Part shown: piece by piece, positions 8,908 to 42,264 of the stretch | Position numbering within the stretch: position 1 is the stretch's first letter | Layout of the letters: every line of letters begins with the position of its first letter | NCBI GenBank assembly: GCA_902546975.1 | Contig: CACCLU010000004.1 | Location: 89,134-153,133 of the forward strand | Direction of reading: 5' to 3' | DNA from: an uncultured Alphaproteobacteria bacterium | GTDB taxonomy: Bacteria > Pseudomonadota > Alphaproteobacteria > HIMB59 | Length of the DNA: 64,000 nt | The notes under the pieces: generated by a model | The model's input: only the letters and a program-made list of their open reading frames with translations | What the model was told of the DNA's origin: nothing | Databases searched by the model: none | Made by a program: the position numbers and the translations under genes

Positions 8908-8940
8908 TTGATATCTATAAAATTATGTTAATTATTATAT

Positions 8941-12544: not shown

Positions 12545-12620
12545 GTTAGTCTCCTCCTAAAATTTAAATCTTATCGAATTGAAATTATATGACCATAATA
12601 TAAAATTACTACTTCAAATT

Positions 12621-13607: not shown

Positions 13608-13616
13608 GTTTTCTGT

Positions 13617-13787
13617 TTATTTATGTCTAGAGAATTTCTTTTTTAAAATCAATTCGTTATCTTTTTTTGCAATTTTTCTTAAAATAAAAATCATAAATGC
13701 AATCCAAATAACTGCTGCTATTAGTTTATTTTCAGCTATTGATTGAATGAGATTTTGAAAAAAGAGATTTGAAGTGTTGTAATCCAT
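13617..13787 (-). CDS. Small single-TM protein (56 aa), not in the ORF track
   Basis: Hand translation MDYNTSNLFFQNLIQSIAENKLIAAVIWIAFMIFILRKIAKKDNELILKKKFSRHK; stop 10 nt before the GATase start. Confidence 0.5.
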   Translation of the reverse strand: MDYNTSNLFFQNLIQSIAENKLIAAVIWIAFMIFILRKIAKKDNELILKKKFSRHK

Positions 13788-17450: not shown

Positions 17451-17927
17451 TTACTCAACTAACTTAAAGTTCTCACCCTTAGCGTATGTTCTTTTTAACT
17501 GTACCAAGGGATGATTAGGTGACATTTGAAACTTAATTAAAAGTTCTCTTGCTAACATATCTCTGTCTTGTTGGTTTTTTGGAAGTTTAATCTTCTTTGG
17601 TAAAGTTATCCAAGCGTTTGCATTTCTGTCAAACACAGCAGGGGTATCGCCTTCAAAACCCATATGGATGTCCTCTAACCAATTTAAATCATCCCAACCC
17701 ATAATTTCGATATATTGTTTAAGAAATGGTGTTAAGTGCTTGTAATCAGGAATTAGGTTAACATCATAACGATAGCCAATATGCTGGCCAATCATTTTTT
17801 CTCTTGATGTTTTAATTTCCTTATCTTTTAATTTAGCTCCGCCGACAACTTGATAACCTTTTGACTTAGTAGGTTTTTTTGATTTTGCAGAAGTTGATTT
17901 CTTTTTTGTAACTTTCTTTTTAACCAT
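17451..17927 (-). CDS. Hypothetical protein with Lys-rich N-terminal tail
   Basis: SD AGGAG; last gene of the 23893-17451 operon. Confidence 0.75.
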   Translation of the reverse strand: MVKKKVTKKKSTSAKSKKPTKSKGYQVVGGAKLKDKEIKTSREKMIGQHIGYRYDVNLIPDYKHLTPFLKQYIEIMGWDDLNWLEDIHMGFEGDTPAVFDRNANAWITLPKKIKLPKNQQDRDMLARELLIKFQMSPNHPLVQLKRTYAKGENFKLVE

Positions 17928-17936
17928 AATACTCTC

Positions 17937-19271
17937 CTAAATTGAGTGGTAGTTATCTACACCTACTGTTAAATCTGTACCAGCCAATGGAACTTTAGCC
18001 ATTGCTGATGACTCCATTGTCAATGCAGCTAGATCTTCTGGCTCAAGTGAGTGAATGTTTGTCTTACCACATGCTCTTGCTAACATTTGGCACTCAAGAG
18101 TCATAGTGCTAAGCAAATTATAAACTCTCTCTGCTGCCTCTGTTGGGTCTAATCTACTTCTAAGAACAGGATCCTGTGTGGCCACACCAACTGGACATCT
18201 ACCAGTATGGCAGTGATAGCAGTAACCTGCCTCCACTCCCATTTCTTTTTCATAATCAGCTTCTGGAATATCTTTGTTACAGTTCAGTGCTACTAATCCA
18301 GCTGTACCGATAGCAATAGCATCTGCACCAAGAGCTAAGGCTTTAGCCATATCAGCTCCATCTCTAATACCTCCAGCAAATACCAATGATATTTCACCAG
18401 TTTTACCAACATCGTCCAAAGCTCTTCTTGCTTCTCTAATTGCCCCAATACCAGGAATACCAGTATTAGCTGCTGCGATGTGTGGGCCAGCTGCTGTTGA
18501 GCCTTCCATAGAGTCTAAAAATATAGAGTCAGGGTCACATTTTGCTGCCATTCTGACATCGTCATAAACTCTTGATGCACCTAATTTCAATTGAATTGGC
18601 ACTTGATTGTCAGTTAATTCTCTTAATTCTTGAACCTTAAGAGCTAAATCGTCCGGTCCCATCCAGTCTGGGTGTCTAGCAGGGGATCTTTGATCAATAC
18701 CAGCAGGTAATGATCTCATCTCAGCTACTTGGTCAGTAACTTTCTGGCCCATTAAGTGACCACCCATCCCAACTTTTTGACCTTGGCCAATGAAAACCTC
18801 AATAGCGTCAGCTAATTGAGCATGGTGTGGGTTGAAGCCATACCTGGATTGAATACATTGATAATACCATTTGTGAGAGTACCTTCTCTCATCAGGTATC
18901 ATACCCCCTTCTCCAGAGCAAGTTGCACTTCCAGCCATTGATGAACCTCTAGCTAAAGCAGTTTTTGCTTCATAAGAAAGAGCACCAAAACTCATACTTG
19001 TTATGTAAACAGGAATATCAAGTTTGATAGGATTTTTTGCTCTAGGGCCTATTATTGTTTCTGTTAGACACTTCTCTCTGTAACCTTCAATAACAAATCT
19101 TGTTAATGTGCCTGGTAAAAAAACTAAATCATCCCAGTGAGGAATTTTTTTCATTAACGCCATACCACGCATACGATAACGACCAAGTTGTGATTTGATA
19201 TGAATGTCGTCCATTACCTCGGGGGTAAAAATTGAGTTTTGTCCTAATAATTGTGTATTACGTTTTGCCAT
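17937..19271 (-). CDS. FMN-binding glutamate synthase-family subunit (MgsC paralog retaining Cys cluster)
   Basis: SMSFGALS, SGEGG, GQGQKVGMGGHL, SPARHPD, CYHCHTGRCPVGVATQD. Confidence 0.88.
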   Translation of the reverse strand: MAKRNTQLLGQNSIFTPEVMDDIHIKSQLGRYRMRGMALMKKIPHWDDLVFLPGTLTRFVIEGYREKCLTETIIGPRAKNPIKLDIPVYITSMSFGALSYEAKTALARGSSMAGSATCSGEGGMIPDERRYSHKWYYQCIQSRYGFNPHHAQLADAIEVFIGQGQKVGMGGHLMGQKVTDQVAEMRSLPAGIDQRSPARHPDWMGPDDLALKVQELRELTDNQVPIQLKLGASRVYDDVRMAAKCDPDSIFLDSMEGSTAAGPHIAAANTGIPGIGAIREARRALDDVGKTGEISLVFAGGIRDGADMAKALALGADAIAIGTAGLVALNCNKDIPEADYEKEMGVEAGYCYHCHTGRCPVGVATQDPVLRSRLDPTEAAERVYNLLSTMTLECQMLARACGKTNIHSLEPEDLAALTMESSAMAKVPLAGTDLTVGVDNYHSI

Positions 19272-20107
19272 TAGCCTAATATTCCTTTCTTTTCTGCTGG
19301 CTCTAGATTGTCATAATTCCAGAGCATTCTTCCTGCAACGTATTTCTTAAATTTTGAAGCTGGGACCTTGCAATCAATCTCAGCATTTTTAATTTTTTGT
19401 TCTAGCCATCTAACCTCGTGTTCATTCATTTCACCAGGTACGCAGTCTGTTCCAAGCGAATGAGGCTCCCCTCCTACAAAAATGATTCCATCATACATTG
19501 AGTCACCCATGTTTGCGTTTACATCACCACAAACGATAATTCTTCCTCTTTGCATCATAAATCCAGTGTAAGCTCCAGCATTTCCGCCAATAAGAATAGT
19601 GCCACCTTTCATATCAATTCCAGTTCTTGCACCTGCATCGCCTTTAACTATAAGGTCACCGCCTCTAAGAGCAGCTCCAAAACAAGATCCTGCATTGTTT
19701 TCAACAACAACTTTTCCTGACATCATATTTTCAGCACATGACCAACCAACTCTTCCGTTAACTCTCACTGTTGGTCCATCGATACAACCGATACCAAAAT
19801 AACCTAAGCTACCCTCAAAGATTAAGTTTAACTTATTTAGAATTCCCACACCAAGTGAATGTTTTGCACCAGGGTTTTTAATAACTATAGACCCATATCC
19901 CTTTCGAATTGCATCTCTGATTTTTTGATTCAATTCATGAGCATCAATGCCTTCACAATCAATGGAGGTTCTTTTATTAAAATCAACTTCGTGATTACCG
20001 TAGTAGGTATAATTTTCTTCTTCTGTTACTTCAAAATATAATTTTTGCGATCTACCTGATAAATTTTCATCATCAAAAGCAGTAGTTCTTTTTGTTATGC
20101 CTGCCAT
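19271..20107 (-). CDS. GXGXG-domain protein (MgsB/GltB3 paralog) with N-terminal extension
   Basis: Repeated G-x-G-x-G beta-helix motifs (GDAGARTGIDMKGG, GNAGAYTGFMMQRG). Confidence 0.85.
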   Translation of the reverse strand: MAGITKRTTAFDDENLSGRSQKLYFEVTEEENYTYYGNHEVDFNKRTSIDCEGIDAHELNQKIRDAIRKGYGSIVIKNPGAKHSLGVGILNKLNLIFEGSLGYFGIGCIDGPTVRVNGRVGWSCAENMMSGKVVVENNAGSCFGAALRGGDLIVKGDAGARTGIDMKGGTILIGGNAGAYTGFMMQRGRIIVCGDVNANMGDSMYDGIIFVGGEPHSLGTDCVPGEMNEHEVRWLEQKIKNAEIDCKVPASKFKKYVAGRMLWNYDNLEPAEKKGILG

Positions 20108-21036
20108 ACTTTTACCTCCGCTTCATAAGGGTCATATGTTTTAATTTCGTGAGGAAATATATTCCTAATTGCAACTTCCTCTGATGCACATGCTACGATG
20201 TCTTTACTTTCGTAGATTACCATTGGCTTAGCGGCCATATGGTCTTTTGCCATTCCCAACTGATCCTTTGTTGCTACAACATATGTAAAAACTCCATCGA
20301 GCTCATCCAAGCTATCATGCATAGCTTTTTCTAGTTCAATGCCGTTAGCCATCTTATCAGCTATATAGACAGCAATTATTTCTGAGTCACAATTTGAATT
20401 AAACCTGTAACCTTTTCTTTCAAGTACTCTTCGATTGCCCCAATAGTTAGTCAATTGACCATTATGAACAACTGACACATCCTCAAAAGGAAAAGCCCAA
20501 TAAGGGTGTGCGGATTTAATATCTACATCAGACTCGGTAGCCATCCTTGTATGGCCAATACCGTGGGTACCCATAAATTTATCAAGGCCATATTGATTGG
20601 ATACAGTATTTGCATCGCCTAAGTCTTTAATGAGCTCAAGACCCTTACCAATAGATAAAATTTCAGTTTTTTCGACTGTTTCTATCTCAGTAGCCAAATC
20701 TGTGAGGTCACCTTTAAAATCAAATATATATCTGAAAGCGTATGGGGTGCTGGAGCTTTCTTTTGTTACTTTAGCACCATGTTTTTTTAAAATAGAGTCG
20801 ACAGCATTTTTTCTATTTTTTAAATCAGCAGGTGAGTCGACAGTTGCATTTACCTTTTCAGCCTCGTTTTCAGATATTTTAAATCTCATTACAAAGCCTT
20901 TTTTTAAAGGTGTTCCGTACATAGCATATCCTGTTGAGTCAGGTCCCCTATGTTTAAGACCTTGTAACATAAGGCCCATTTGTTCACCGACGTTGACTGT
21001 CTTCTTTTTATTTATAACTCCAGCTATTCCACACAT
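20095..21036 (-). CDS. Class II (Ntn) glutamine amidotransferase (MgsA paralog)
   Basis: N-terminal MCGIAG, HRGPDSTG, GHTRMATES, HNGQLTN, DSE. Confidence 0.88.
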   Translation of the reverse strand: MCGIAGVINKKKTVNVGEQMGLMLQGLKHRGPDSTGYAMYGTPLKKGFVMRFKISENEAEKVNATVDSPADLKNRKNAVDSILKKHGAKVTKESSSTPYAFRYIFDFKGDLTDLATEIETVEKTEILSIGKGLELIKDLGDANTVSNQYGLDKFMGTHGIGHTRMATESDVDIKSAHPYWAFPFEDVSVVHNGQLTNYWGNRRVLERKGYRFNSNCDSEIIAVYIADKMANGIELEKAMHDSLDELDGVFTYVVATKDQLGMAKDHMAAKPMVIYESKDIVACASEEVAIRNIFPHEIKTYDPYEAEVKVWQA

Positions 21037-21055
21037 ACTTTTCTCCTATCTTATC

Positions 21056-22525
21056 TTATGGTAAGCAATCTAGGTATTTATCGAGATCCCATTGAGTCGG
21101 AGTTGCTAAAAATTCTTCCCACTCATCTCTTTTATACTCCATAAACACTTTCATCATGTCACCTGGTAGAGCATCTTGTATTACCTTATCGGTTTCTAAT
21201 CGATCTAATGCCTCACCAAGAGTCATTGGTAATTTTTCAACTTGCTTACCAGCTTTCATTTGTTCATACATATTTTGTTGTTCAGGTTTGCCTGGATCCA
21301 TTTTCTTTGAAATACCATGGTCGAATGCTTTCAACAGGCCGCTTCCCATTAAGTATGGGTTGTGGGCTGAGTCAACTGATCGATATTCAAATCTACCAGG
21401 GGCAGATACCCTTAAACCACAGGTTCTGTTTTGATATCCCCAGTCCGCATAAACTGGAGCCCAAAAACCTGTATCCCAAAGTCTTCTATATGAATTCACA
21501 GTTGAGGAACCCAAGGCTGTTAAAGCAGGAAGGTGTTCCATGACACCACCAATTGCTTGAAGGCCTATTTTTCCAGGAATTCTTCTATCTTTTCCGTCCG
21601 GCATAAAGACATTTGTACCTCCCCTACGGTGATGAAATACATTTTCCATACCTGGGATAGTCTTGTTACCACATGGTATTAACTCATCTTTTCCGCCCTT
21701 CCAGAGTGAAATATTTGTGTGACACCCAGAAGCAGACACGCCAACAAATGGCTTACTCAGAAAACAAGCAATCAAATTAAATTCTCTTGCTACTTGAGCA
21801 CAGATTTGTCTGTAAGTTGATAACCTGTCAGCGTTTCTAACAACATCATCGTAGTTGAAATTTAGTTCTAATTGTCCAGGCGCGTCCTCATGGTCACCTT
21901 GGATAATGTCCAAACCCATTGCACGTGAATACTCAATTACTTTCATGTAAACAGGTCTTAATGATTCAAATTGATCAATGTGATAGCAGTAAGGCTTAGA
22001 GAAACCTGAGCCAGTCGGTGAACCATCTTCGTTTTTTGTTAACCACATCATTTCAGGTTCTGTCCCTGCTCGTAATTCTAGTTTGTGTTTCTTTTTAAAT
22101 TCTTCATGGGCTCTTTTTAAGTTACCTCTGCAATCAGATGTAAGATATCCACCAGGATCTTTTTCTTCTTCCCTGTTTCTAAAACAAGTACAAAAAACTC
22201 TGGCAATTCTTTTATCCCATGGAATTTGAACAAATGTTTCAGGGTCAGGTATACCCACTAATTCGTGAGCCTCTGGTCCATAACCTATGTAATCACCATG
22301 TCTATTTGTAAATAGATTAGCAGTAGCTCCATAAACTAATTGGAAACCTTTATTGGCTACACTCTCCCAATGATCTGCAGGAACACCTTTACCTACAATT
22401 CGACCTGTAACAGAAATAAATTGATAATAAATGTACTCAATTCCTAATTTATCAATTTTTTTTCTAACTTGTTTTATATAGTCTTGTCTCTTTTTATCCT
22501 TAACGTACGTTTCTAGCGCTGTCAT
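21056..22525 (-). CDS. Glutamine synthetase-like gamma-glutamyl-amine ligase (paralog 2, GMAS-like)
   Basis: GTEPEM, GDHEDAPGQLE, SASGCH, FWAP, NRTCGLR, FEYRSVD..NPY. Confidence 0.85.
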   Translation of the reverse strand: MTALETYVKDKKRQDYIKQVRKKIDKLGIEYIYYQFISVTGRIVGKGVPADHWESVANKGFQLVYGATANLFTNRHGDYIGYGPEAHELVGIPDPETFVQIPWDKRIARVFCTCFRNREEEKDPGGYLTSDCRGNLKRAHEEFKKKHKLELRAGTEPEMMWLTKNEDGSPTGSGFSKPYCYHIDQFESLRPVYMKVIEYSRAMGLDIIQGDHEDAPGQLELNFNYDDVVRNADRLSTYRQICAQVAREFNLIACFLSKPFVGVSASGCHTNISLWKGGKDELIPCGNKTIPGMENVFHHRRGGTNVFMPDGKDRRIPGKIGLQAIGGVMEHLPALTALGSSTVNSYRRLWDTGFWAPVYADWGYQNRTCGLRVSAPGRFEYRSVDSAHNPYLMGSGLLKAFDHGISKKMDPGKPEQQNMYEQMKAGKQVEKLPMTLGEALDRLETDKVIQDALPGDMMKVFMEYKRDEWEEFLATPTQWDLDKYLDCLP

Positions 22526-22546
22526 TTTATTCCTCCTCCTTTTACA

Positions 22547-23893
22547 TCAACTCCAAGGGAACGGGCTCTTTGAAACCGGATGTAACTTCCCTTCTTCATA
22601 ACGAGAAAATCTAAAAGGTTCTAGAATTTCAGATTTCTCACCAAGTAACTCATTAGATACAAGATCACCTAACCCAGCCATTTTGTATCCATGGTTTGCA
22701 TCAGCTATAATATATACGTTTTCTCTGTATCGGTCGAATACGGGAAAACGATCTGGAGTAACACAGCCAATACCGCCAGCTTTTTGCTTTTTGTATTTAG
22801 CGTGACATCCATCAAATTGCTTTTGGCAAAAAGCCAAAGCTGAGGTCCATTTATCCTCAAAAGAAGCCCTAGGTTGAAACTCATCTGAGTCATGACCATA
22901 AGGGTCAAGACTTATGTCGTTTACAGGTTTATTTATGTCATAAGGAGAGGAGCCGCCTTGTATACCATCTCTGTAGACATCGGGCTTATAGTAAAAACCC
23001 CACATAACATTTTCATGTATAACATCTCCTGTTTTATTTGAGACAAGTGTAGCTTCTGTATCAACATGAATAACTGGGTACTCTGTTCCGTTTGCTGTTT
23101 TATAACTTCTTGGATCAACTTCCAACTCACCCTCTTCAAGCGCCATGTATGACCACATAGGTATATCATCAGTAAATGAACCATCAGGTTTTTTTATTTT
23201 TACGGTGTTAGGTAATTCTAAAATTTCCCAAAATTTTCTTACCCAAGGGCCAGCCGCAACAACTAATTGAGTGCATTCAATTTTACCCTCTGAAGTTTCT
23301 ACAGCCGAAACTGCTCCACTACCATTAGAAGAAATTAAATTGTTAACAGTCACACCTTCTAAAACTTTTGCTCCAGCTGATACTGCTAACTTATGGAAGC
23401 CCTCTATAGCTCCTCTATTAGCTCCATATCCTGTTTTCTTTTCGTGTAAAACTGAAGTGATGCCTTGAGCTTGCCAATCTGGCAACATGTCTTTCATATA
23501 CTTATCACAATCTGATGCTCCCTCGATAAACTCAGAGTCAAATCCTATTTCTTTTTGCTGCTCATAAACTTCAGACATGCCCTCTTGCATAAGCTCGGAG
23601 TTGATCTGCATGTAGCCAACTGGCTTGTAAGTTAAAGCCTCAGCATTCTCATTCCAAACATTTACAGAATGAGCCATTAGTCTTCTCATTGCAGGCTGGT
23701 AGTAGTTGTTCCTTACAATTCCACATGCAACACCACTTGCTCCATTTGCAACTTTGGATTTTTCCAAAACGACTACAGAATTTTCTTTGAGTTGGCCTTT
23801 GCTGGATAATTTTTTACAAAGATGCCATGCGGTGCTCAGACCGTGAATTCCAGCCCCGATTATTAAATAGTCACATTTAGTAGGTAAGCTCAT
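22547..23893 (-). CDS. FAD-dependent oxidoreductase, DAO/SoxB superfamily (start moved to ATG 23893)
   Basis: GAGIHGLSTAWHL Rossmann motif, GASGVACG; SD GGAGG precedes ATG at 23893. Confidence 0.85.
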   Translation of the reverse strand: MSLPTKCDYLIIGAGIHGLSTAWHLCKKLSSKGQLKENSVVVLEKSKVANGASGVACGIVRNNYYQPAMRRLMAHSVNVWNENAEALTYKPVGYMQINSELMQEGMSEVYEQQKEIGFDSEFIEGASDCDKYMKDMLPDWQAQGITSVLHEKKTGYGANRGAIEGFHKLAVSAGAKVLEGVTVNNLISSNGSGAVSAVETSEGKIECTQLVVAAGPWVRKFWEILELPNTVKIKKPDGSFTDDIPMWSYMALEEGELEVDPRSYKTANGTEYPVIHVDTEATLVSNKTGDVIHENVMWGFYYKPDVYRDGIQGGSSPYDINKPVNDISLDPYGHDSDEFQPRASFEDKWTSALAFCQKQFDGCHAKYKKQKAGGIGCVTPDRFPVFDRYRENVYIIADANHGYKMAGLGDLVSNELLGEKSEILEPFRFSRYEEGKLHPVSKSPFPWS

Positions 23894-23952
23894 TATTTTA
23901 GTAACCTCCAAGCAGTTACATTTTGTCTGTGAGGTATGAAAAAAACACATTT

Positions 23953-24010: not shown

Positions 24011-24781
24011 TCAATTGGCAACAATTAGTCGAGAAATTTTAATCGAGGCAGATTGAAGGAGATCGACATAATACATCATAGTTTTTGGGTTTAAAATATT
24101 TTTACTTCCTGATAAAGCGATTCCGGCAAATGATCTTTTATCTTTGTCTAAAATAGCAACTCCTATTCCATAAGAGTTTTCAAAAGCTTCTCCATGATTA
24201 AGTGCATAACCGTTAGTTCTAATTTTGCCTAGTTGTCTTTTTAAATCATTTAAATTTGTAATTGTATTGTTTGTGTGTGGATAAAAATTATAACTACGAT
24301 AAATTGTTGCAATTTCATTTTCAGGTCTGTAAGCAAGCATGACTTTTCCCAAAGCACAGCAATGAGCGTCAAGTCTCATTCTAAAAGTTCTAATAGTTGC
24401 ATCATCATTGTTGTCAGAAATTTTATCAGAATGAACTATTTGAGATCCTTCAAGCATTGCCAAATAGGTAATTAAATTCGTTTTACTAGAGACCTCTTTT
24501 AGAATTTCTTTAGAAGTCTCAGAAATTGACTGAAGATAATCTGAGGTTTCTCCAAATTGAAAAGCTTTATGCCCCATAGTGTATGTATTCGATCCAGTAT
24601 TTTTATGGATATAACCAAGTTGAGATAAAACAGACAATAGTCTAAATGTAGTTGTTCTAGATAAAATTGCTTTTCTGGAAATATTCGATGCCTTCAACGG
24701 GAAAATTGATTTTGATAAAATTTCAAGAATTTTAAAAGATTTTTCCAGAGATTTATTTATATATTTTAAATTTTGTTGCAA
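24011..24781 (-). CDS. IclR family transcriptional regulator
   Basis: N-terminal KSLEKSFKILE..HTH (LSRTTTFRLLSVL..LGY), AHCCALGKVMLA, IRTNGYA; TTG start with GGAGG SD. Confidence 0.92.
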   Translation of the reverse strand: MQQNLKYINKSLEKSFKILEILSKSIFPLKASNISRKAILSRTTTFRLLSVLSQLGYIHKNTGSNTYTMGHKAFQFGETSDYLQSISETSKEILKEVSSKTNLITYLAMLEGSQIVHSDKISDNNDDATIRTFRMRLDAHCCALGKVMLAYRPENEIATIYRSYNFYPHTNNTITNLNDLKRQLGKIRTNGYALNHGEAFENSYGIGVAILDKDKRSFAGIALSGSKNILNPKTMMYYVDLLQSASIKISRLIVAN

Positions 24782-33034: not shown

Positions 33035-34369
33035 ATGACAAAAGTTGCACTAATTGGTACAGGTCCCTGTGGACTATCTTTTTTAAGATCTCTGCATCAA
33101 GCGCAAAGCAAAGGCGAAAATATTCCTGAGGTTGTTGCCTTTGAAAAACAAGAAAGTTGGGGTGGTCTTTGGAATTATACTTGGAGAACCGGGTCTGATC
33201 AATATGGAGATCCAATTCACAATAGTATGTATAGATACCTTTGGTCGAATGGACCAAAAGAGTGTCTTGAATTTGCAGATTATTCTTTTGATGAGCATTT
33301 CAAAAAACCAATTCCCTCCTTCCCTCCAAGAGCCGTCCTTCAAGATTACATTTTAGGTCGTGCAGAAAATTCAGATGTAAAAAAATACGTAAAGTTTAAC
33401 ACAACTGTTACCTCTGTTGCTGATAATGGTAATGGATTTGATATTACATACCGAAATAAAAAAGACGATCAAACTAAAACTGAAAGTTTTGATAAATTAG
33501 TTGTTGCGACTGGACACTTCTCTGTTCCCTACATTCCTGAATATGAGGGAATGAATAGCTTTCCAGGGAGAATAATGCACTCTCATGATTTCAGAGACGC
33601 TGAAGAGTTTAGAGATAAAAACGTTGTCGTTCTCGGAAGTAGTTACTCTGCTGAAGATGTAGCGTTACAGTGCCATAAGTATGGAGCTAAAACTGTTACT
33701 ATTGGTTATAGAAACAATCCAATGGGTTTCAATTGGCCTGAAGGCATGAAAGAAGTACATTACATGGATAAGATCGATGGAAACAAAGCAGTTTTTAAAG
33801 ATGGCACAGTTCAAGAAATGGATGCCTTAATACTATGTACAGGTTACTTGCATCATTTTCCTTTTTTACCAGAAGATCTAAAATTAAAAACTCATAACAG
33901 GCTGTATCCTCCAAACTTATACAAAGGAGTAGTATGGCAAAATAATCAAAATTTGTTTTATCTTGGTATGCAAGATCAGTTTCATACTTTTAACATGTTT
34001 GATGCTCAAGCTTGGTATGTTAGAGACATAATAATGAACAAAATAACTCTGCCTTCAGCTGATGAGTTAGCAAAGGATATTGATAACTGGGTTAAAAAGG
34101 AAGAAGCCCTAGAGGATGCCTATCAAATGATTGATTTTCAAACAGATTATTGTGTGGATTTATGTTCTGCTGTTGACTACCCAAAAATTGACTTTGAGTT
34201 AATTCGCAAACATTTTTATGATTGGGAACACCATAAGGAAGAAAATATCCTGACCTATAGAGATAAATCCTTTTCCTCGCCAGTCACTGGCACCACTGGT
34301 CCCTCACATCATACTACATGGTTGGATGCTATGGATGACTCTATGTCTACATATTTAGATACAAAATAA
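33035..34369 (+). CDS. tmm: Trimethylamine monooxygenase (bacterial FMO)
   Basis: GTGPCG, GGLWNYTWRTG, SMYRYLWSNGPKECLEF, FMO motif FPGRIMHSHDFR, GSSYSAED. Confidence 0.93.
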   Translation: MTKVALIGTGPCGLSFLRSLHQAQSKGENIPEVVAFEKQESWGGLWNYTWRTGSDQYGDPIHNSMYRYLWSNGPKECLEFADYSFDEHFKKPIPSFPPRAVLQDYILGRAENSDVKKYVKFNTTVTSVADNGNGFDITYRNKKDDQTKTESFDKLVVATGHFSVPYIPEYEGMNSFPGRIMHSHDFRDAEEFRDKNVVVLGSSYSAEDVALQCHKYGAKTVTIGYRNNPMGFNWPEGMKEVHYMDKIDGNKAVFKDGTVQEMDALILCTGYLHHFPFLPEDLKLKTHNRLYPPNLYKGVVWQNNQNLFYLGMQDQFHTFNMFDAQAWYVRDIIMNKITLPSADELAKDIDNWVKKEEALEDAYQMIDFQTDYCVDLCSAVDYPKIDFELIRKHFYDWEHHKEENILTYRDKSFSSPVTGTTGPSHHTTWLDAMDDSMSTYLDTK

Positions 34370-34376
34370 ATAATAT

Positions 34377-34550
34377 ATGTCCAATCATACTCTTAATTTT
34401 ATTGGATGGGTTTTATTTATTATATCTGCTGTAGGCTTTATAATATCAAGTATTGGTAGTTTCTGGGCTATGTTTGGAAGTCTTTTTTTCTTTGTAGCTT
34501 GTTTTGTTTTTCTAATACCATTCTTTAGAAAAGAAAAAAATAAAGATTAA
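34377..34550 (+). CDS. Small two-TM protein (57 aa) directly after tmm, not in the ORF track
   Basis: MSNHTLNFIGWVLFIISAVGFIISSIGSFWAMFGSLFFFVACFVFLIPFFRKEKNKD; starts 7 nt after the tmm stop. Confidence 0.7.
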   Translation: MSNHTLNFIGWVLFIISAVGFIISSIGSFWAMFGSLFFFVACFVFLIPFFRKEKNKD

Positions 34551-35716
34551 GGAATATTTTTGTCAATCCCCTTTGGGATGAGTTTTTCTTTATCGTAAAA
34601 TGGTAAATCAATTATTTCGCAGTCAGCTAAATTATCATTAACAGAATCAACTTTAATTTGAAATTCTTTCCACTCACCAGGGTAGTCAAATCGTACATAA
34701 CCCACATACTTTTCTAAAGTAGGAGACCAAGTTGATGCTGAAAGATATCCAATTTTTTGTTCATTTGATGATAAATAAACTTTTGCTCTTGGAATAATTT
34801 CTTTATCGGTAGTTATACCAAATAATCTCTTTCCAAATTTTGTTGATAAAAATTCTAAAGCTTTTTTTCCAATAAAATTTTCTTTTTCCAAATCAACTAG
34901 AGAGCCTAATCCAATTTCATAAGGATTCATAGAAGAGTCAAAATCTGTGTTGTTATCTAGGATGCCTGCTTCAATTCTTCTTATATCCATTGATTCTAGA
35001 CCATCAAATGTCATACCCATCGGATATCCGATTTCACAAATAGTATCCCAAATTTTTTTATAATTAGTCTTATTTCCTAGAGTATAAATTTCGAAGCCTA
35101 ATTCAGAAGTCCATCCTGTTCTAGAGACATATACATTTTGATCAGCTATTTTTGAATAGCCTGAATGATAATATTTAAAATCATTGTTTATTTCTCCATT
35201 TGTCAGCTTTGAAATTATATCTTTAGAAATTGGACCTTGTATTTGTATCACTCGAGAATTAGGGTCAGTTATAGTAACTTCATAGTTTTTTTGATGAGCT
35301 TTTAACCAAGTTTCAAGGGGTCCATCAGGTTGGACGTACCAAAATTTATTTTGCTCTAATCTAAAAAGGACACCATCTATAAATATTCCGCCATTTTCAT
35401 AACAGGCAATTGCATATTTACCCCTGCCTACTTTCATATCTTTAATTTTGCGACAAAATATTTTATCAAGAAATTCCTCTGACTGTGGTCCCTCTATTTG
35501 AATAGGTTTTTCAGGTACATCATACATGACAGCTTTTCTTCTCAAATTCCAGTAACTATCTTTAATTTTATTTCCAACAGATATTGGAAAATAGCGATCG
35601 GCATATACACCATAAGAATTATCTTCTTTATGATAAAATTCAAAAAAAGGTCCTTTATCAAACCTGTTATCACTAATTGGTAAAGTTGAAGATTTATCTA
35701 AAAAAATTGAACTCAT
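34547..35716 (-). CDS. GcvT-family aminomethyltransferase / THF-dependent demethylase-like protein
   Basis: MYDVPE, IDGVLFRL, VSRTGWTSELGFEIY, RRIEAGILD; directly downstream of tdm. Confidence 0.85.
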   Translation of the reverse strand: MSSIFLDKSSTLPISDNRFDKGPFFEFYHKEDNSYGVYADRYFPISVGNKIKDSYWNLRRKAVMYDVPEKPIQIEGPQSEEFLDKIFCRKIKDMKVGRGKYAIACYENGGIFIDGVLFRLEQNKFWYVQPDGPLETWLKAHQKNYEVTITDPNSRVIQIQGPISKDIISKLTNGEINNDFKYYHSGYSKIADQNVYVSRTGWTSELGFEIYTLGNKTNYKKIWDTICEIGYPMGMTFDGLESMDIRRIEAGILDNNTDFDSSMNPYEIGLGSLVDLEKENFIGKKALEFLSTKFGKRLFGITTDKEIIPRAKVYLSSNEQKIGYLSASTWSPTLEKYVGYVRFDYPGEWKEFQIKVDSVNDNLADCEIIDLPFYDKEKLIPKGIDKNIP

Positions 35717-35732
35717 TTAAAAGATAAATAAA

Positions 35733-38084
35733 TTAGGATTTAACTCTTGATTTAGTTGGATCATAAAATGGGAAAGGTACAACCTTAGCCTTTATTCTTT
35801 TTTGTTGACCATCTAACTTACCTATTTCAACTTCAGTATTAAGCTCGCTGTATTTGACATTGATTTTACAAAGAGCAATATTTTTATTTAGAACAGGGGA
35901 TTTCATACCACTTGTTATAATGCCAACTTGTTCCCTTCCATTATTTGAAGGATGAACACAGTCACCATGCCCGGTAGTTTCATTTCCCTCAATCTCAAGT
36001 CCAACTAGTTTTCTTTGAGGGTTTGTCTTTCTTTCAAGTAAAGCTTCTTTACCAATAAAGTTATCTTCTTTTGATTTGAGAGGAACAGTAAAACCAATTC
36101 CCGCCTCAAACGGATCAGTTTGATCGTCGAATTCATAATTTGCAAAAACTAAACCAGCTTCAATTCTGACTAAATCCAAAGCGTCCAATCCCATAGGCAC
36201 AATTCCAAACTCCTCTCCGGCTTTCATTACAGCATCCCAAACTTCAGCAGCTTTACTCGGATGACAGAATATTTCATAACCTAGTTCACCTGTATATCCA
36301 GTTCTAGAAACCATTAAAGGAATTCCATCTAAAGTATTTAACCTAGCTATAGAAAACCTAAACCACTCTAAATCAGTCAATGATGTTTGATGAGGAGGGG
36401 TCCAGATTATCTTTTTTAATATTTCTCTACTCTTTGGCCCTTGGACGGAAACATTATGTAAATTATCAGTAGAAGATTTAATCCATACCTTTAAGTTATG
36501 TTCCTTTGCTTTTTCTCTTAACCATTCACCGCAATACTCATCTCCACAAATCCACCTAAAATTATCATCCGTCATTTTGAATAGTGTACCGTCATCAAGC
36601 ATACCTCCATGCTCGTAGCACATCGCAGTGTAAACAACTTGGCCAACAGATAGTTTTCTGATGTTTCTGGTGCAAGTCATTTGTAAAAGTTCTTCAGCGT
36701 CTGGGCCTCGTACTTCAAACTTTCTTAATGCTGATAGATCCATAATGATAGCCCGCTCTCTGCAAGCTTCATATTCTTGGTGCGCCCCGTAATTATTATA
36801 ATTAGAAGCTAACCAGAAGCCTTTGTACTCAACAATATTTTCAGTAAGTTTTGATACTCTTGGGTGAAAACCAGTTTCTTTAGTTAATTTTGGATCAGAG
36901 TCTGCTTTCATTCTAAATGCCATTCCTTTACTAAAAGGTCTATTCGGTCTATAGACTCTAACAAAAATGTCAGTAGGATTCCATCCATTAGCTGCATCTA
37001 CATCGTCTGGACAGGCAGAGGAGACACAAACTAAATTTTTCAGGGCTTTAAACATCACATAGTCTCCTGGTCTAGACCATGGTTCATCAAAAATTAAAGC
37101 ATTATTTGCATCAATGGCTGTGTTGTAAAATAAATTTATAGCATTCCAACCTAGTCTTTTTCTCACAGTAAACTTATCTAATACATAATTGAAATTATCT
37201 GAGCAATTTGGATGACCAAAATAGCCAATATCATCATAAAATTTCGAAGTACATGCAGTACCAAACGTATCATGTCTTCCGACAGTGTCTCTGTAGACTT
37301 CAACCATGGGCATTTGATTTTCATCGTAATATTTAGAATGGAGACCTGGCATTGGAAAAGCACTACCCATTAAATATCTACTATTAGTTGTATCTATTGA
37401 GAGCTCTTGGCCTTTTTGAAGGCTCTCTGAGTCGAATGCCATAAAGTCAGAACATTGTCTTCCATAAACATCAATTATCTGAATAAAATCTCCCTCTTTG
37501 ACCTCATAGGCCATTGCGGTATATCTTTTAACAAAAATTTCTTCAACAGGATCCATTAAAGGGTCTGGTAATAAAAATTCTCCCTCTTCACGTTTTTTAT
37601 TTCTTTGAACAATTACTCGTAGTTGGGATGCAGGAATATTTTCATGTGTAATTTCACTTTCGCCTGGTGCAGAAATTATACAAACAATGGAGTCGTTTGT
37701 TTTAAACTCCTCAATTGAACCTGAAAGTGAATTTTGAGAAAATACTAAAATCGATTGATTAATAGACTCTACCTCATATCCAAGTTTTTTTAATTTAGTA
37801 CGTGCTATTTGAGCTGACTCCTCCTCGCTCGTAAGGATTTTTTTTGTTAATTGTCCGTTGTGCTCGTTATTAAGACCTAAAGGTGATAGATTACACTCTC
37901 GCTTTGAATTAAAGCATACAATCTCGGCCTGTTGATGGCCTTCTAAATTAATTATTTTAATTTTGTCATCTGGTTCTAATTTTAATGTGAGAGAACCTCC
38001 ACCAATTACCAAATAATTTTCTAAGTCGTCACCAAGAGCTGGTAATCCAGGTTCATAAGGTTGAGTAACTCTTGGGATGATCAT
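35733..38084 (-). CDS. tdm: TMAO demethylase (DUF1989 + GcvT fusion)
   Basis: N-terminal DUF1989 repeats with GRQCSDF, HDTFGTAC, SSACPDD; C-terminal GcvT (DLSALRKFEV, RTGYTGELGYEI). Confidence 0.9.
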   Translation of the reverse strand: MIIPRVTQPYEPGLPALGDDLENYLVIGGGSLTLKLEPDDKIKIINLEGHQQAEIVCFNSKRECNLSPLGLNNEHNGQLTKKILTSEEESAQIARTKLKKLGYEVESINQSILVFSQNSLSGSIEEFKTNDSIVCIISAPGESEITHENIPASQLRVIVQRNKKREEGEFLLPDPLMDPVEEIFVKRYTAMAYEVKEGDFIQIIDVYGRQCSDFMAFDSESLQKGQELSIDTTNSRYLMGSAFPMPGLHSKYYDENQMPMVEVYRDTVGRHDTFGTACTSKFYDDIGYFGHPNCSDNFNYVLDKFTVRKRLGWNAINLFYNTAIDANNALIFDEPWSRPGDYVMFKALKNLVCVSSACPDDVDAANGWNPTDIFVRVYRPNRPFSKGMAFRMKADSDPKLTKETGFHPRVSKLTENIVEYKGFWLASNYNNYGAHQEYEACRERAIIMDLSALRKFEVRGPDAEELLQMTCTRNIRKLSVGQVVYTAMCYEHGGMLDDGTLFKMTDDNFRWICGDEYCGEWLREKAKEHNLKVWIKSSTDNLHNVSVQGPKSREILKKIIWTPPHQTSLTDLEWFRFSIARLNTLDGIPLMVSRTGYTGELGYEIFCHPSKAAEVWDAVMKAGEEFGIVPMGLDALDLVRIEAGLVFANYEFDDQTDPFEAGIGFTVPLKSKEDNFIGKEALLERKTNPQRKLVGLEIEGNETTGHGDCVHPSNNGREQVGIITSGMKSPVLNKNIALCKINVKYSELNTEVEIGKLDGQQKRIKAKVVPFPFYDPTKSRVKS

Positions 38085-38087
38085 TCT

Positions 38088-40160
38088 CTATGCTAATCCA
38101 AGAGCTTTTTTTCTTTCCTCGGCCCATTTTCTCACAATTACATCTACTGAAATAGCCATTAAAGAAACGAATAAACCTAGTGTTATAGCAACACCAGGAC
38201 CGTCTTGAGCTCTTGATAATGCTCCAAAAATAAGTTGGCCTAAATCTTCAGTTCCAATTAACGCTCCTAAAATTACCATTTGAAGAGTGAAAACAACTGT
38301 TTGATTAACGCCAAGCATAATTGTAGGGAAAGCTAATGGAATTTCAATATTTGTCCATCTTTGTATTCTCGAGACACCGGACATGGTGCCTGCTTCATGT
38401 AAGGAGAGTGGGACACTATTTAGACCCCAGACAGTATATCGAGTAGCAGGAACAGTAGCATAAACAATAGCAGCTATTAACACTGAGGTATCAGTAATAT
38501 TGAACAAGAAGATAACAGGTATTAAATAAACAAAGGATGGAAATGTTTCAAAAAAATCACACACGGAGAGAATAATTTTTGACCCCCTCTCAGTTTGTGC
38601 AAATATTGATCCAACTATTATTCCATTGAGAGATGCCATAATTACAGCAAATGTTGCCATGTACATTGTAATTAAAGCTCTGTCCCAATATTTTGACATA
38701 GCAATAAATAACATCATGCCCCCAACTAATAAGCTTGTTCTAATTCCACCAATGATATAAGCGACACCCATAGTAAGAGTCAACGTGGCAACTACTGGCA
38801 TACCTAGATAAGCTTTTTTCATAGGACCTAGAACTTCAGTTAGAAGAAACTTATTGAAAGAATTGAGAGAATAGAAAAAAGTTTCCCAAACCCAATCAAC
38901 AGCAGCATCAATATAGTGAGCAAAAGTAAAACCTTTTTCAATAGGTATGACATATAAGTAATTAATTTTATCGAAGTAACCATTTGCTATAAAAGCAATG
39001 ATTGAAAAAATTAAAATTGAGGTTCCAAAGATGATTAAGAGTTTATATCTTTGAAAAAAAGATAAATTTTCAAAATAATCAACTTGTTTATTCGCCCATG
39101 CTTTTGTAAATCGATCAAGGATAACAGCAATTAAGACGATACAAAAACCTGCTTCAGCAGCTTTGCCAATTTTTAAACTATTTAAGGCAATTTTTAAATT
39201 TAGACCAAGTCCTTTTGCACCAACGAAAGACGCAATTACAACCATTGCTAGGCATTGCATAATAACTGTATTGACACCGTTTAAAATATCTCGTCTAGCT
39301 GTTGGTATTAATACTTTAAATAAAAGCTGAGTTTTTGTACAACCGCTCATAAGTCCCGCTTCTACTACCTCAGGTGAAATTCGTTTTAATCCTAAAATGG
39401 TATTTCTTATCATTGGTGGGGTAGCAATTACTATAGTAGCTATCGAACCTGCATGATCGCCTAAACCAAATAAAGCTATAATAGGGACTAGATATGCAAA
39501 TTGAGGCATAGTTTGCATTACATTTAGTACTGGTTGCAAAGCTGTCTCAACTTTTCTATCTAGGTATCCCCATATTCCAAAGGATAGACCTAATACAAAA
39601 CAAATTGGTGTTGTAATTAGAACAAAAGAGAGTGTTTGTATAGATGGTACCCAATTTCCAAAGATTGATACATATAAAGATCCTATCCCTCCAAGTAAAG
39701 CCAATCTAATACCACCAAGTTGGAACCCAAGCAAAAAAGCACCGACTGTAGCTGCTGTCCATGGAAGTGCTGGCCATGTCATCCAATCATTATCTTTCAG
39801 CCAAGCATCACTAACAAAAACATCAATTATTTTGTCACCACCCAATAAAAGTTCTCTTACAAAAGTAATTAAAAATAATAAACCTTTAGATATAGATTTT
39901 GTGAATTCACGAAATGCTGCTTTTTCTTCATACATTTCAAATATGGGGTCCCATACTTTGAGAGGAAACCATTCATATAAAGCTGCATATATAATCTCAT
40001 TTAACTTAATTGGTATGAAAGCTAATATAGAGGGAAGTCTCCAAAAATAGTTACCCTCATTATGTGGCACTAAATTGTATAAAAGCAAAAATACAATTAA
40101 TAAAATACCAAACTGAGCTAGTTTTGAAGATCTAATGATATTTAAATAATTCTTATCCAC
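38088..40160 (-). CDS. tmoV: TMAO ABC transporter permease (two fused ProW-like domains)
   Basis: Two repeats (LNVMQTMPQFAYLVP, CDFFETFPSFVYLIP), each followed by an EAA-like loop. Confidence 0.85.
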   Translation of the reverse strand: MDKNYLNIIRSSKLAQFGILLIVFLLLYNLVPHNEGNYFWRLPSILAFIPIKLNEIIYAALYEWFPLKVWDPIFEMYEEKAAFREFTKSISKGLLFLITFVRELLLGGDKIIDVFVSDAWLKDNDWMTWPALPWTAATVGAFLLGFQLGGIRLALLGGIGSLYVSIFGNWVPSIQTLSFVLITTPICFVLGLSFGIWGYLDRKVETALQPVLNVMQTMPQFAYLVPIIALFGLGDHAGSIATIVIATPPMIRNTILGLKRISPEVVEAGLMSGCTKTQLLFKVLIPTARRDILNGVNTVIMQCLAMVVIASFVGAKGLGLNLKIALNSLKIGKAAEAGFCIVLIAVILDRFTKAWANKQVDYFENLSFFQRYKLLIIFGTSILIFSIIAFIANGYFDKINYLYVIPIEKGFTFAHYIDAAVDWVWETFFYSLNSFNKFLLTEVLGPMKKAYLGMPVVATLTLTMGVAYIIGGIRTSLLVGGMMLFIAMSKYWDRALITMYMATFAVIMASLNGIIVGSIFAQTERGSKIILSVCDFFETFPSFVYLIPVIFLFNITDTSVLIAAIVYATVPATRYTVWGLNSVPLSLHEAGTMSGVSRIQRWTNIEIPLAFPTIMLGVNQTVVFTLQMVILGALIGTEDLGQLIFGALSRAQDGPGVAITLGLFVSLMAISVDVIVRKWAEERKKALGLA

Positions 40161-41166
40161 CGAATAAAACTTTTATAACTTTAGAAGGGTTTATAGAGCC
40201 AACTACTGAATTTTTATCATCAACAACTTTAATAATTTCTTTACTATTTAAAATTTTTTCTGCTACGGTTTCTATAATATCATCTTTTTTAACAGCTATT
40301 TCTCCGGAGGCATGTGGATCAGAGGCATCCATGATTGACTCTATCTTCAATACTTTTTCACGAGGGACATCCTCAGTAAATTTCCTAACATAGTCAGTAG
40401 CAGGATTTAAAACTATATTATCTGGTTTGTCTAATTGTTCTATTATTCCATCTTTCATAATAGCTATTCTATCAGCAAGCCTCAATGCTTCGTCAAAGTC
40501 ATGAGTGACAAACATAATTGTTTTATTCAAAACAGACTGGAGTCTCAAAAACTCGTCTTGCATTTCTTTTCTAATTAGAGGATCAAGTGCAGAGAAAGGC
40601 TCATCTAAAAACCAAATATCAGGTTCAACTGCTAATGACCGCGCAATTCCAACTCTTTGTTGCTGTCCACCAGAGAGTTCTCTTGGAAAGTAATTTTCTC
40701 TACCCTTTAGGCCTACAAGCTCAACCATTTCAAGTGCTTTATGAATGCTATTTTCAGTAGTGACTCCTTTTACTTGAAGCGGAAAAGCAATATTTTCTAA
40801 AACTGTTTTATGTGGAAGAAGAGCGAAATTTTGAAATACCATTCCCATCTTTTCTCTTCTTAGTTCGATTAATTGCTTATTATTCATTAAGCAAATATCC
40901 TCACCATCAATTAAAATTTTACCAGAAGTTGCGTCTGTTAATCTAGATATACACCTTAGTAATGTTGATTTTCCTGATCCAGAGAGACCCATAACTACAA
41001 GCATTTCTCCCTGATTTACATCAAAAGAAGCATTGTTAACGCCAACTATGCACCCTGCTTCTTGAAATTTTTTGGCGTCTACATTCCCTCCACTTTCAGA
41101 TAAAAGTGTCTGAGCGTTATTACCAAAAATTTTATAGACAGATGAACAGCTAATAGTTGGTGACAT
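40153..41166 (-). CDS. tmoW: TMAO/betaine ABC transporter ATPase
   Basis: GLSGSGKST, LSGGQQQRVG, DEPFSALDPLIR (ProV-like). Confidence 0.88.
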   Translation of the reverse strand: MSPTISCSSVYKIFGNNAQTLLSESGGNVDAKKFQEAGCIVGVNNASFDVNQGEMLVVMGLSGSGKSTLLRCISRLTDATSGKILIDGEDICLMNNKQLIELRREKMGMVFQNFALLPHKTVLENIAFPLQVKGVTTENSIHKALEMVELVGLKGRENYFPRELSGGQQQRVGIARSLAVEPDIWFLDEPFSALDPLIRKEMQDEFLRLQSVLNKTIMFVTHDFDEALRLADRIAIMKDGIIEQLDKPDNIVLNPATDYVRKFTEDVPREKVLKIESIMDASDPHASGEIAVKKDDIIETVAEKILNSKEIIKVVDDKNSVVGSINPSKVIKVLFGG

Positions 41167-41192
41167 AAATTAATCTTTCCTAAAATAAAATT

Positions 41193-41221
41193 AATTCCCC
41201 CCTCAAAAAGAGGGAGGAATT
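41193..41221 (-). terminator. Hairpin between tmoX and tmoW
   Basis: Minus strand AAUUCCUCCCUC-UUUUU-GAGGGGGGAAUU, fully paired using one U:G wobble, followed by a U-rich tract. Confidence 0.65.
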
Positions 41222-41234
41222 CAAATTAGAAATA

Positions 41235-42176
41235 TTACTTCATAAATAGATCTATTTGATCTCTATTATTTGCAATATATGCAGTTGCAGCTTCAGCATG
41301 AGTCATGCCTTCGTTGTCAACGTAGTTTGCCATTTCACCAATGTTAGGTGCTGTAAATTCCATTTTTGTATAGAACTTATATGCAGATGTATGAGTGATT
41401 GGGAACTTAATGTGAGCAGCTTTTTTAAGCCAACCTTTTGGAGAACCACAACCAGTAGTCTCTAAAGAACCACCTTGTTCTAGTCTACATCCCTCGAAGT
41501 ATGGAGGAAATTCAATGAAAGTAAAACCAGCTGCATCTGTAAAGTTTGGAGACCAGTTAAAGATAATTGTGCCTCTTCCCTCTTTTTTAGCTGCTTCTAA
41601 TTCAGCCCATAATGCATCTGCAGTACCTGCAAATTTTACCATCCATAAATCATCTATACCAAGACCTTTAAGTCTGTTAGGCATAACTTCTGTGTGCCAC
41701 TCATAAGGACCTTCTAACCATCTACCTTTACCTTCAGAGTCTGGTGTTGCAAAGTTTGCTGCACACTCTGGAGATTTAAGTGCTTCCCAGCTTGGAAGAC
41801 CAGGACATAATCCATCTTCGATTACCCAGTTAGGAACACCCATTTCTTCAAAAGTAATAAGGTCGTGACTTCCAGCATCAATTAATCCACCTTTATCCAT
41901 AGCTTCATAAAAAGGCAGAGCCATTGTTGACTCCCAAGTTTCGTGAGCAACGTGAAGTTCACCTACTCTGACAGCTTCATATCTTGTTGCTGACTCAGCA
42001 GGGACTAATTCAACATCATAACCAAGCTCTTCAAAAGCTTGTGCCATAACGTTAGCCATAACGATTTGGCTTGACCAGTTTAAAACTGGAATTCTAATCG
42101 GGTCTGCTGCTTTTGCTACAGTTGTAAAACCAGCAAACAGGACTAGAGCGTAAAATAATGAAATAAATTTTTTCAT
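41235..42176 (-). CDS. tmoX: TMAO ABC transporter substrate-binding protein
   Basis: Signal peptide; NWSSQ, HETWE, EEMGVPNWV, FNWSPNF; adjacent to tdm. Confidence 0.85.
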   Translation of the reverse strand: MKKFISLFYALVLFAGFTTVAKAADPIRIPVLNWSSQIVMANVMAQAFEELGYDVELVPAESATRYEAVRVGELHVAHETWESTMALPFYEAMDKGGLIDAGSHDLITFEEMGVPNWVIEDGLCPGLPSWEALKSPECAANFATPDSEGKGRWLEGPYEWHTEVMPNRLKGLGIDDLWMVKFAGTADALWAELEAAKKEGRGTIIFNWSPNFTDAAGFTFIEFPPYFEGCRLEQGGSLETTGCGSPKGWLKKAAHIKFPITHTSAYKFYTKMEFTAPNIGEMANYVDNEGMTHAEAATAYIANNRDQIDLFMK

Positions 42177-42245: not shown

Positions 42246-42264
42246 AAATCCATAATATGAAACA
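42246..42264. promoter_or_regulatory. Operator copy AAATCCATAATATGAAACA upstream of tmoX
   Basis: 16/19 identical to the 32918 copy. Confidence 0.6.

Follow-up and report, generated by a model that had tools for sequence, protein, structure and literature searches.

The stretch of DNA analysed here (the window; 64,000 nucleotides of contig CACCLU010000004.1, from an uncultured alphaproteobacterium of the HIMB59 lineage) carries an island of genes for trimethylamine N-oxide (TMAO) and trimethylamine (TMA), within which lies a gene for a free-standing protein of the GcvT fold, here called type A. The window has a G+C content of ~32% and its genome, of 1.29 Mb, is 94% complete (G000 below; other G numbers denote compared genomes, L numbers loci and P numbers metagenome proteins). 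The type A gene (34547..35716, minus strand), which was analysed through its open reading frame (ORF), Pfam domains, trees, approximately unbiased (AU) tests, a structural model and dN/dS, is an intact ORF of 389 aa with an ATG start. A Pfam scan of the protein returned GCV_T (PF01571; 9.2e-46, residues 39-271, 156.6 bits against a cut-off of 25.6) and GCV_T_C (PF08669; 6.3e-09, residues 296-375, 36.1 bits against a cut-off of 25.9), and no further domains.

Type A is the last gene of an operon on the minus strand that runs in the order tmoX, ABC (ATP-binding cassette) ATPase, permease, tdm and type A. The first three genes, recognised by Pfam and NCBIfam, encode an OpuAC-type binding protein (tmoX, 41235..42176), the ABC ATPase (40153..41166) and a fused double betaine-type permease (38088..40160). 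Together (38088..42176) they are syntenic with, and 54-76% identical to, their counterparts at the tmoX-tdm locus in a SAR11-like genome and are predicted to form a TMAO-type ABC importer; SAR11_1302 binds TMAO (PMC11485210). The fourth gene, tdm (35733..38084), encodes a TMAO demethylase of 783 aa with DUF1989, GCV_T and GCV_T_C domains by Pfam and a score of 1158.4 bits on NCBIfam NF053776 (cut-off 1100). Reading of the sequence places an AT-rich spacer of 16 nt (35717..35732, minus strand) between the tdm stop and the type A ATG, which begins with the 17th base past that stop, and a terminator scan found no terminator-like site in this spacer, implying that tdm and type A are co-transcribed. 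Convergent with type A lies tmm (33035..34369, plus strand), which encodes trimethylamine monooxygenase (738.4 bits on NCBIfam NF058570, cut-off 675). An earlier note on this DNA had described a free-standing GcvT-fold protein at the end of a tmoX-tdm operon, starting 17 nt downstream of tdm; Pfam, the operon order and the structural model all agree with that description, and the spacing is as given there.

The AlphaFold model of type A, built from an alignment of 58 sequences, reached a pLDDT (predicted local distance difference test) of 93.6 and a predicted template modelling score (pTM) of 0.90, while single-sequence input gave a pLDDT of only 33.8. Foldseek superimposed the model over its full length on the T-protein of T. 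maritima (1WOO) and on DmdA of P. ubique (3TFH), with E ~1e-33 and query-normalised template modelling (TM) scores of 0.83-0.85, and also matched it to the folate domains of dimethylglycine oxidase, DMGDH and sarcosine oxidase. With both Pfam domains and the three-domain cloverleaf fold, type A is a member of the GcvT-fold, tetrahydrofolate (THF)-binding superfamily. The modelled fold by itself cannot tell T-protein, DmdA and these folate domains apart.

A search of 1.84 billion representative proteins yielded ~25 representatives of 50%-identity clusters above 200 bits, below which the scores fall to the level of Tdm-like and other folate enzymes; single 90%-identity clusters of the family contain hundreds of metagenome sequences. 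Public sources label these relatives 'glycine cleavage system aminomethyltransferase T', and the ESM Atlas returned only generic 'aminomethyltransferase' clusters. Two trees were built, a quick one of 126 rows and a careful one of 50 rows (LG+C20; support values are ultrafast bootstrap / SH-aLRT). The target family forms one clade in the 50-row tree (100/99), in agreement with the 126-row tree, and a second clade (100/99) comprises authentic DmdA, a 434-aa paralog from the window's own genome and many unnamed proteins. On one side of a further 100/99 branch stand both clades and two stragglers, on the other the C-terminal domain of Tdm (Tdm-C), DmmD, the SoxA/DMGDH-type proteins and GcvT; DmmD stands beside the Tdm-C clade in both trees. 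AU tests were run on the 50-row set, with groups that are those of the earlier note but that were set up after a first tree. A joint clade of the family with DmdA orthologs was rejected (cost 82 log-likelihood units, p-AU 5.5e-05), as was a clade of the family with DmmD (cost 46 log-likelihood units, p-AU 0.0012). Phylogeny against DmdA, DmmD and GcvT, part of the check proposed in the earlier note, thus returns a separate family with 100/99 support, an uncharacterised sister of the DmdA-containing clade; type A is the tdm-linked branch of this family and is not DmdA, DmmD or GcvT.

DmdA is nevertheless the best sequence match of type A in the PDB (6.9e-41), and the residues E69, W126, D131, P152, Q158, W202 and R246 are common to the family and the DmdA clade but not to the formaldehyde-handling domains. 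Of these, W202 aligns with DmdA W171, which is reported to be the key residue specific for dimethylsulfoniopropionate (DMSP) (numbering of PMC7487153), and is invariant in 111 of 112 type A sequences. Also conserved in type A are the catalytic Asp (D114) and the folate-contacting, THF-stacking residues E209 and Y211.

Type A falls below every NCBIfam cut-off. Its top model is the Tdm model NF053776, on which it scores 193.9 bits over profile positions 396-758 only (the C-terminal region), and it lacks the DUF1989 domain that completes the Tdm architecture. On the DmdA model NF009133 it reaches 159.3 bits against a cut-off of 410, so that the score and the AU test alike set it apart from authentic DmdA, the enzyme with which the earlier note had asked whether it would cluster. 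The models for LigM and DesA give 75 bits against 580 and 60 against 800, and the fold match is weaker too (TM 0.67, root-mean-square deviation 5 Å). The genome holds eight GcvT-fold proteins: Tdm, two SoxA, two DMGDH/SARDH-like proteins, a true DmdA (482.5 bits, cut-off 410), the 434-aa DmdA-like paralog and type A. The paralog (L012; G000:C2:179302-180645) scores 270 bits, below the DmdA cut-off, as an uncharacterised member of the DmdA clade, and its gene adjoins a second SoxA gene and a DMGDH/SARDH-like gene.

None of these eight proteins is a canonical T-protein, and the public naming of its relatives would make type A the only candidate for an ordinary glycine-cleavage T-protein. This assignment fails at several points. 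The scores on the GcvT models are 179.8 bits against a cut-off of 300 (NF001567) and 125 against 235.85 (TIGR00528). In the 94%-complete genome there is no match to the P-protein (GcvP, PF02347), and the only match to the H-protein (GcvH, PF01597) is one of 24 bits over 38 residues, too little for a real H-protein. The residues N113, R223 and R292 of the E. coli T-protein, which contact the folate, the aminomethyl group and the arm of the H-protein, are replaced by P130, M243 and P309 in type A, whereas N/R/R is kept in 18 of the 18 GcvT-clade rows. Type A as the missing T-protein of this genome was ruled out on these grounds, and a decaying, functionless paralog fares no better, given a frame that is intact in more than 50 genomes and a dN/dS of 0.05-0.075 against orthologs of 90-98% identity, which indicates strong purifying selection. 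Both possibilities are regarded as highly improbable. As a separate observation, no glycine cleavage system was found in G000, a genome otherwise rich in folate-linked demethylases.

The earlier note had drawn an analogy with DmmD, the GcvT-fold protein of dimethylamine (DMA) monooxygenase, and this part of its proposal is not supported. The DmmD references (Paracoccus aminophilus pAMI6, Ruegeria conchae and Rhizobium johnstonii) are closely related to one another, at 63-72% identity across the three genera, but share only 25% identity with type A; at all three loci inspected, DmmD lies directly before dmmA, dmmB and dmmC. Their best match in G000 is the C-terminal domain of Tdm (172 bits), with type A at 99.8 bits, and tblastn with DmmA, DmmB and DmmC of P. 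aminophilus found nothing in the genome. Together with the AU rejection, these results rule out type A as a relict DmmD left behind after loss of dmmABC. On another contig, a 237-aa protein (G000:C1:44397-45110; L014:4398-5111, plus strand), also found at G001:C1:70715-71185, has a weak match (57.6 bits) to PF11927, the heme oxidative N-demethylase alpha / DmmC family; it was not accepted as a Dmm protein, having no NCBIfam match and no DmmA or DmmB homolog in the genome.

A functional, rather than phylogenetic, likeness to DmmD is a different proposition: type A may have no substrate of its own and may instead capture formaldehyde or an iminium onto THF as 5,10-methylene-THF, the one-carbon (C1) unit coming from Tdm or from the flavoprotein encoded at 22547-23950. 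This is the role proposed for DmmD, the only other free-standing GcvT-fold protein of methylated-amine islands, and the marine bacteria concerned have only the tetrahydrofolate (H4F) route for C1 units (PMC5520151). The catalytic Asp and E205 of type A are GcvT/Tdm-like, its top NCBIfam model covers the Tdm C-terminal region, and a related subgroup, P0120, adjoins a stand-alone DUF1989 protein, although this neighbour is UAAP2-like and convergent. However, DmmD and Tdm-C are related to type A at the superfamily level only, and Tdm is reported to pass the formaldehyde that it makes along a closed tunnel to the THF site of the same protein (PMC13619132), which makes capture on behalf of Tdm, one of the options in the earlier note, look redundant. 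The flavoprotein module, for its part, occurs without type A in SAR11-like genomes and in one lineage of the genus, and the ancestral private regulator described below argues for an inducing substrate of the enzyme's own. We therefore consider C1 capture unlikely.

The GTDB family of the window's genome consists of one genus with 71 genomes. Tdm was found in 60 of them, truncated and weak matches counted, and a type A ortholog (57-100% identity) in 54; in ~46 of the latter the gene follows tdm directly, in four it lies within 0.5-1.5 kb, with a LysR gene and/or an ORF of 125-136 aa in between, and in four contig ends hide its position relative to tdm. The deeper type A lineages (G001, 58% identity; G069, 65%; metagenome proteins P0063, 66%, and P0101, 57%) have a more extended layout: tmoX-ATPase-permease, a small multidrug resistance (SMR) gene, tdm, LysR on the other strand and type A, then convergent small ORFs and tmm. 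The window's lineage has lost the SMR gene, the LysR gene and the 125-aa ORF, and retention of type A, joined to tdm, despite these losses argues that it is useful in the TMAO context. The 110-aa SMR gene (Qac/EmrE-type) is seen between the TMAO permease and tdm at L047 (12985-13317, minus strand), L049 (4843-5175, plus strand) and L087 (5255-5587, plus strand). The 125-136-aa ORF, which is conserved among relatives, matches no known family; its assignment as a glyoxalase/VOC protein was considered and found no Pfam support.

Both the deeper type A lineages and other subgroups of the family have the LysR gene divergent from the enzyme gene. LysR identity is 61-75% within type A and 46-49% to the P0120 group, and the regulator has diverged in step with the enzyme. 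This ancestral pairing with a private LysR argues for an enzyme with its own inducing substrate.

Within the genus, type A has a paralog, type B (398 aa, 46-49% identity), which is sister to type A (95/88) and occurs in at least 43 of the 71 genomes; G000 lacks it. At the two loci inspected, type B lies directly behind a gene for a 783-aa cytoplasmic molybdenum (Mo) S/N-oxide reductase of the BisC family (944 bits on TIGR00509, no Tat leader region), itself preceded by a fused betaine-type permease; at L046 (G027:C6:60594-74346), the three genes occupy 7965-9161, 9162-11513 and 11513-13636, all on the minus strand. Genes for OpuAC, a BKACE enzyme, a short-chain dehydrogenase/reductase (SDR), a malonyl-CoA-synthase-like ligase and an HDAC-like protein lie near type B. 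The architecture of this cassette parallels that of tmoX-tdm-type A. In the putative pocket, W202, Y65 and D254 of type A are F, F and G in type B. A third subgroup (P0118, P0120 and P0121; 49-51% identity to type A) has kept its LysR partner, and the P0120 loci (49%) lie beside a stand-alone UAAP2-like DUF1989 protein, an EutA-like protein and agmatinase. The DUF1989 neighbour scores 243 bits as UAAP2-like against 87 bits as Tdm, and its convergent orientation means that it is not co-transcribed; at L093 (2000-5610; logan SRR23126146 contig), P0120 stands tail to tail with the DUF1989 protein and the EutA-like gene, and agmatinase is on a sister contig. More distant members lie beside LysR or XRE regulators, OpuAC importers, creatinase, SDRs or glutathione S-transferase (GST). 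The neighbours of a homolog on a Phaeobacter plasmid (35% identity), namely LysR, a GlxA-type regulator and an aldehyde dehydrogenase, are suggestive without being decisive. Betaine-type (OpuAC) importers recur as neighbours. What the members of the family have in common is a regulator of their own, often a betaine-type importer, and substrates that are rich in nitrogen or of the onium type; no protein partner recurs.

These neighbourhoods, and the relation to DmdA, also bear on the possibility that type A applies DmdA-like chemistry to a sulfonium or betaine-type osmolyte outside the amine pathway, such as a DMSP analogue, its adjacency to tdm reflecting shared use of the importer and island formation. 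In favour of this, the DmdA clade is the sister of the family, which has kept the Trp reported to contact DMSP, a sulfonium is the proven methyl donor for this fold (PMC5395565), other members lie beside OpuAC genes with no amine genes nearby, and type B, behind a BisC-family reductase in an OpuAC-type importer operon, would fit a sequence of sulfoxonium, sulfonium and demethylation. What makes this explanation doubtful is, first, that the genome already has an authentic DmdA and the 434-aa DmdA-like paralog, and that type A and type B differ at the putative pocket positions. In addition, type A orthologs with as little as 57% protein identity still occupy the slot between tdm and tmm, and the window's lineage retained type A and joined it to the tdm operon while the LysR, SMR and 125-aa genes went.

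The reading that we favour, tentatively and with some reservation, is that type A is a soluble, stand-alone, folate-dependent, DmdA-like demethylase of a small methylated cation of the TMAO route. Placement on the DmdA side, the DmdA-type Trp, the ancestral private regulator and the lack of a conserved partner suggest the stand-alone demethylase, and the tdm-tmm slot kept to 57% identity, together with retention during streamlining, suggests that the cation belongs to the TMAO route. From the gene, its fold and family placement, the synteny, the history of the regulator and the signs of selection, we infer THF use, methyl transfer and the class of substrate as follows. Type A would bind THF in its central cavity in the manner of DmdA and hold a small methylated cation against the conserved Trp and an acidic pocket, and one methyl (or C1) unit would pass to THF and on into the folate C1-oxidation pool, with no need for a flavoprotein, H-protein or DmmABC partner. 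The ancestral unit is the divergent LysR and enzyme pair, which points to an inducible single-step catabolic enzyme, and in this genus it lies between tdm and tmm; with the loss of LysR in the window's lineage, type A became the last cistron of the operon, so that it would be made whenever TMAO is imported and demethylated. The most likely substrate is a methylated amine of the TMAO route: DMA, its Tmm-N-oxygenated form, or TMAO/TMA. As a hint of methyl-THF chemistry, metF was sought near type A, and none was found in the window.

Several observations weigh against this reading. Methyl transfer to THF is chemically much harder from a protonated amine than from a sulfonium, dimethylammonium being a poor donor, and we know of no non-corrinoid example of direct amine-to-THF methyl transfer. 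The family is uncharacterised, and its nearest characterised protein, DmdA, is only 27% identical. At E205, type A has the GcvT/Tdm-like residue where DmdA proper has Gln or Lys, which leaves room for methylene-THF chemistry. Three genomes of the genus, G008, G010 and G068, whose Tdm is 73-75% identical, carry the same island of tmoX-tdm, convergent tmm and soxBDAG but no type A: between the ends of tdm and tmm, with the ORFs as called here, lie 5 to ~300 nt (5 nt in two genomes), and no member of the family was found in any of them; judging by the search results, G002 may be the same. The SAR11-like tdm genomes G421, G277 and G390 also lack the family. TMAO catabolism thus does not need type A, which is an accessory gene and not an essential step of the island. 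Outside the genus, family members are not linked to tdm even in the tdm-bearing genomes G262, G098 and G377, and their neighbours are varied (creatinase, agmatinase, UAAP2-like DUF1989 proteins, SDRs and GST).

The earlier note had named type A as a candidate for the DMA step, by methyl transfer from a methylated amine to THF. The transfer itself fits the sister relation to the DmdA clade, whereas candidacy for the DMA step is weakened, because one lineage has the island without type A, the SAR11-like tdm genomes lack the family, and a six-gene module in the window (17451-23950, with homologs in SAR11-like genomes) tracks tdm. This module, which includes a partnerless SoxB-like flavoprotein (22547-23950), co-occurs with tdm wherever inspected. 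It adjoins tdm in G421, G277 and G390, which supports its being a component of the TMAO pathway; its flavoprotein is present also in the type A-less lineage of the genus, and its GS-like protein is 70-73% identical in other tdm-bearing, DmmC-less genomes, where homologs of the type A family are unlinked to tdm. At the SAR11-like loci inspected (L075, G421:C2:477713-496004; L077; L078), the first gene of the module, a 'monomeric sarcosine oxidase-like' flavoprotein, appears to be SAR11_1304 of Sun et al. 2011. As module and tdm occur without type A, general DMA handling in these bacteria cannot be the work of type A, which is at most an additional or alternative DMA route in one genus; the general 'missing DMA step' has no strong candidate in type A, and the six-gene module is better distributed.

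A folate-dependent route from DMA to methylamine through type A in Dmm-less ocean bacteria, either direct or via Tmm-oxygenated DMA, appears improbable. Of its two forms, the Tmm-activated one, in which dimethylhydroxylamine or a nitrone would serve as an iminium-like C1 donor to THF, is chemically more plausible than direct demethylation of DMA, and a passage of PMC3915288 that cites Chen et al. 2011 has Tmm acting on DMA. Were this route true, the slot between tdm and tmm would mirror the pathway from TMA through TMAO, DMA and activated DMA to monomethylamine.

In the sea, methylated amines make up a large pool of nitrogen and act as precursors of aerosols, and DMA handling in abundant streamlined bacteria without DmmABC is an acknowledged gap (PMC5520151). 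The family has two paralogs, each behind an N- or S-oxide enzyme in a betaine-type importer operon. Identification of the substrate would bring a new folate-dependent demethylation into the marine cycling of C1 units, nitrogen or sulfur and reveal what bacteria of the HIMB59/AEGEAN-169 type harvest; a DMSP-like substrate would be a modest extension of known biology.

Further features of the island concern tmm and putative regulatory sites. Directly 3' of tmm lies an ORF for a conserved hydrophobic protein of 57 aa (34377..34550, plus strand; translation), whose stop overlaps that of type A by 4 nt, tail to tail. Pfam gave no match for it, homologs occur on other contigs, and a near-identical 55-aa gene lies behind tmm on such contigs (e.g. 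L087:10587-10754); the ORF probably encodes a conserved membrane microprotein associated with tmm. The Tmm of the window is 56-57% identical to Tmm of genus relatives whose Tdm is 73-87% identical (L047, L081, L082 and L084), and this low identity may reflect a replaced tmm allele. Upstream of tmoX, a pattern search located the palindrome TGTTTCATA-N-TATGAAACA (42246..42264, a 15/19 match, no strand assigned), which has only four sites in the window when up to four mismatches are allowed (23953, 24799, 32918 and 42246); the other three copies precede an IclR gene, the six-gene module and the soxB/tmm divergent promoter. The regulator at 24011-24781 has IclR domains, and the palindrome is likely to be its operator. 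Between tmoX and the ATPase gene, a strong hairpin (41193-41221, minus strand; 12 pairs, 6 of them G-C, followed by a T-run) is probably an attenuator that allows an excess of the binding protein.

Among known systems, the T-protein (GcvT) shares with type A the fold (TM 0.83-0.84), the catalytic Asp and the folate-site Glu and Tyr, and differs from it in that type A falls under the model cut-offs, has no P- or H-protein partners and has lost the equivalents of Asn113, Arg223 and Arg292. DmmD (Ruegeria pomeroyi SPO1579; Paracoccus aminophilus pAMI6) is, like type A, free-standing, of similar length and found in methylated-amine clusters, but it lies beside dmmABC (three loci inspected), to which the type A genome has no matches. 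In DmmD, as in the folate domains of Tdm, SoxA and DMGDH, formaldehyde or an iminium ends up as methylene-THF (PMC5520151). The C-terminal THF domain of Tdm (PDB 9Q59) has the same fold, and type A is 29% identical to the Tdm next to it; Gly115 and Phe118 are common to type A and Tdm-C, and both lack the GcvT Arg223. In contrast to Tdm, type A is without the catalytic DUF1989 domain; it groups in a separate clade (100/99) and does not carry the Tdm-type residues at the DmdA-clade signature positions. Tdm is reported to bind THF with a Kd of ~150 nM, at the site to which its tunnel guides its formaldehyde (PMC13619132), whereas a previous modelling study questioned whether the Methylocella Tdm binds THF strongly (PMC12560246). 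DmdA (P. ubique, PDB 3TFH/3TFI/3TFJ) moves a methyl group from a sulfonium to N5 of THF in a redox-neutral reaction (PMC5395565). Type A departs from it in being only 27% identical, in having Glu205, Gln158 and Arg246 where DmdA proper has Gln/Lys, Ala and Glu/Asp, and in lying within a TMAO/TMA island and not with DMSP genes, the true DmdA of the genome being encoded elsewhere. The two proteins nonetheless have in common the free-standing form of ~370-390 aa, the three-domain THF fold (TM 0.85), a sister-clade relation and derived residues that include the Trp equivalent to DmdA W171.

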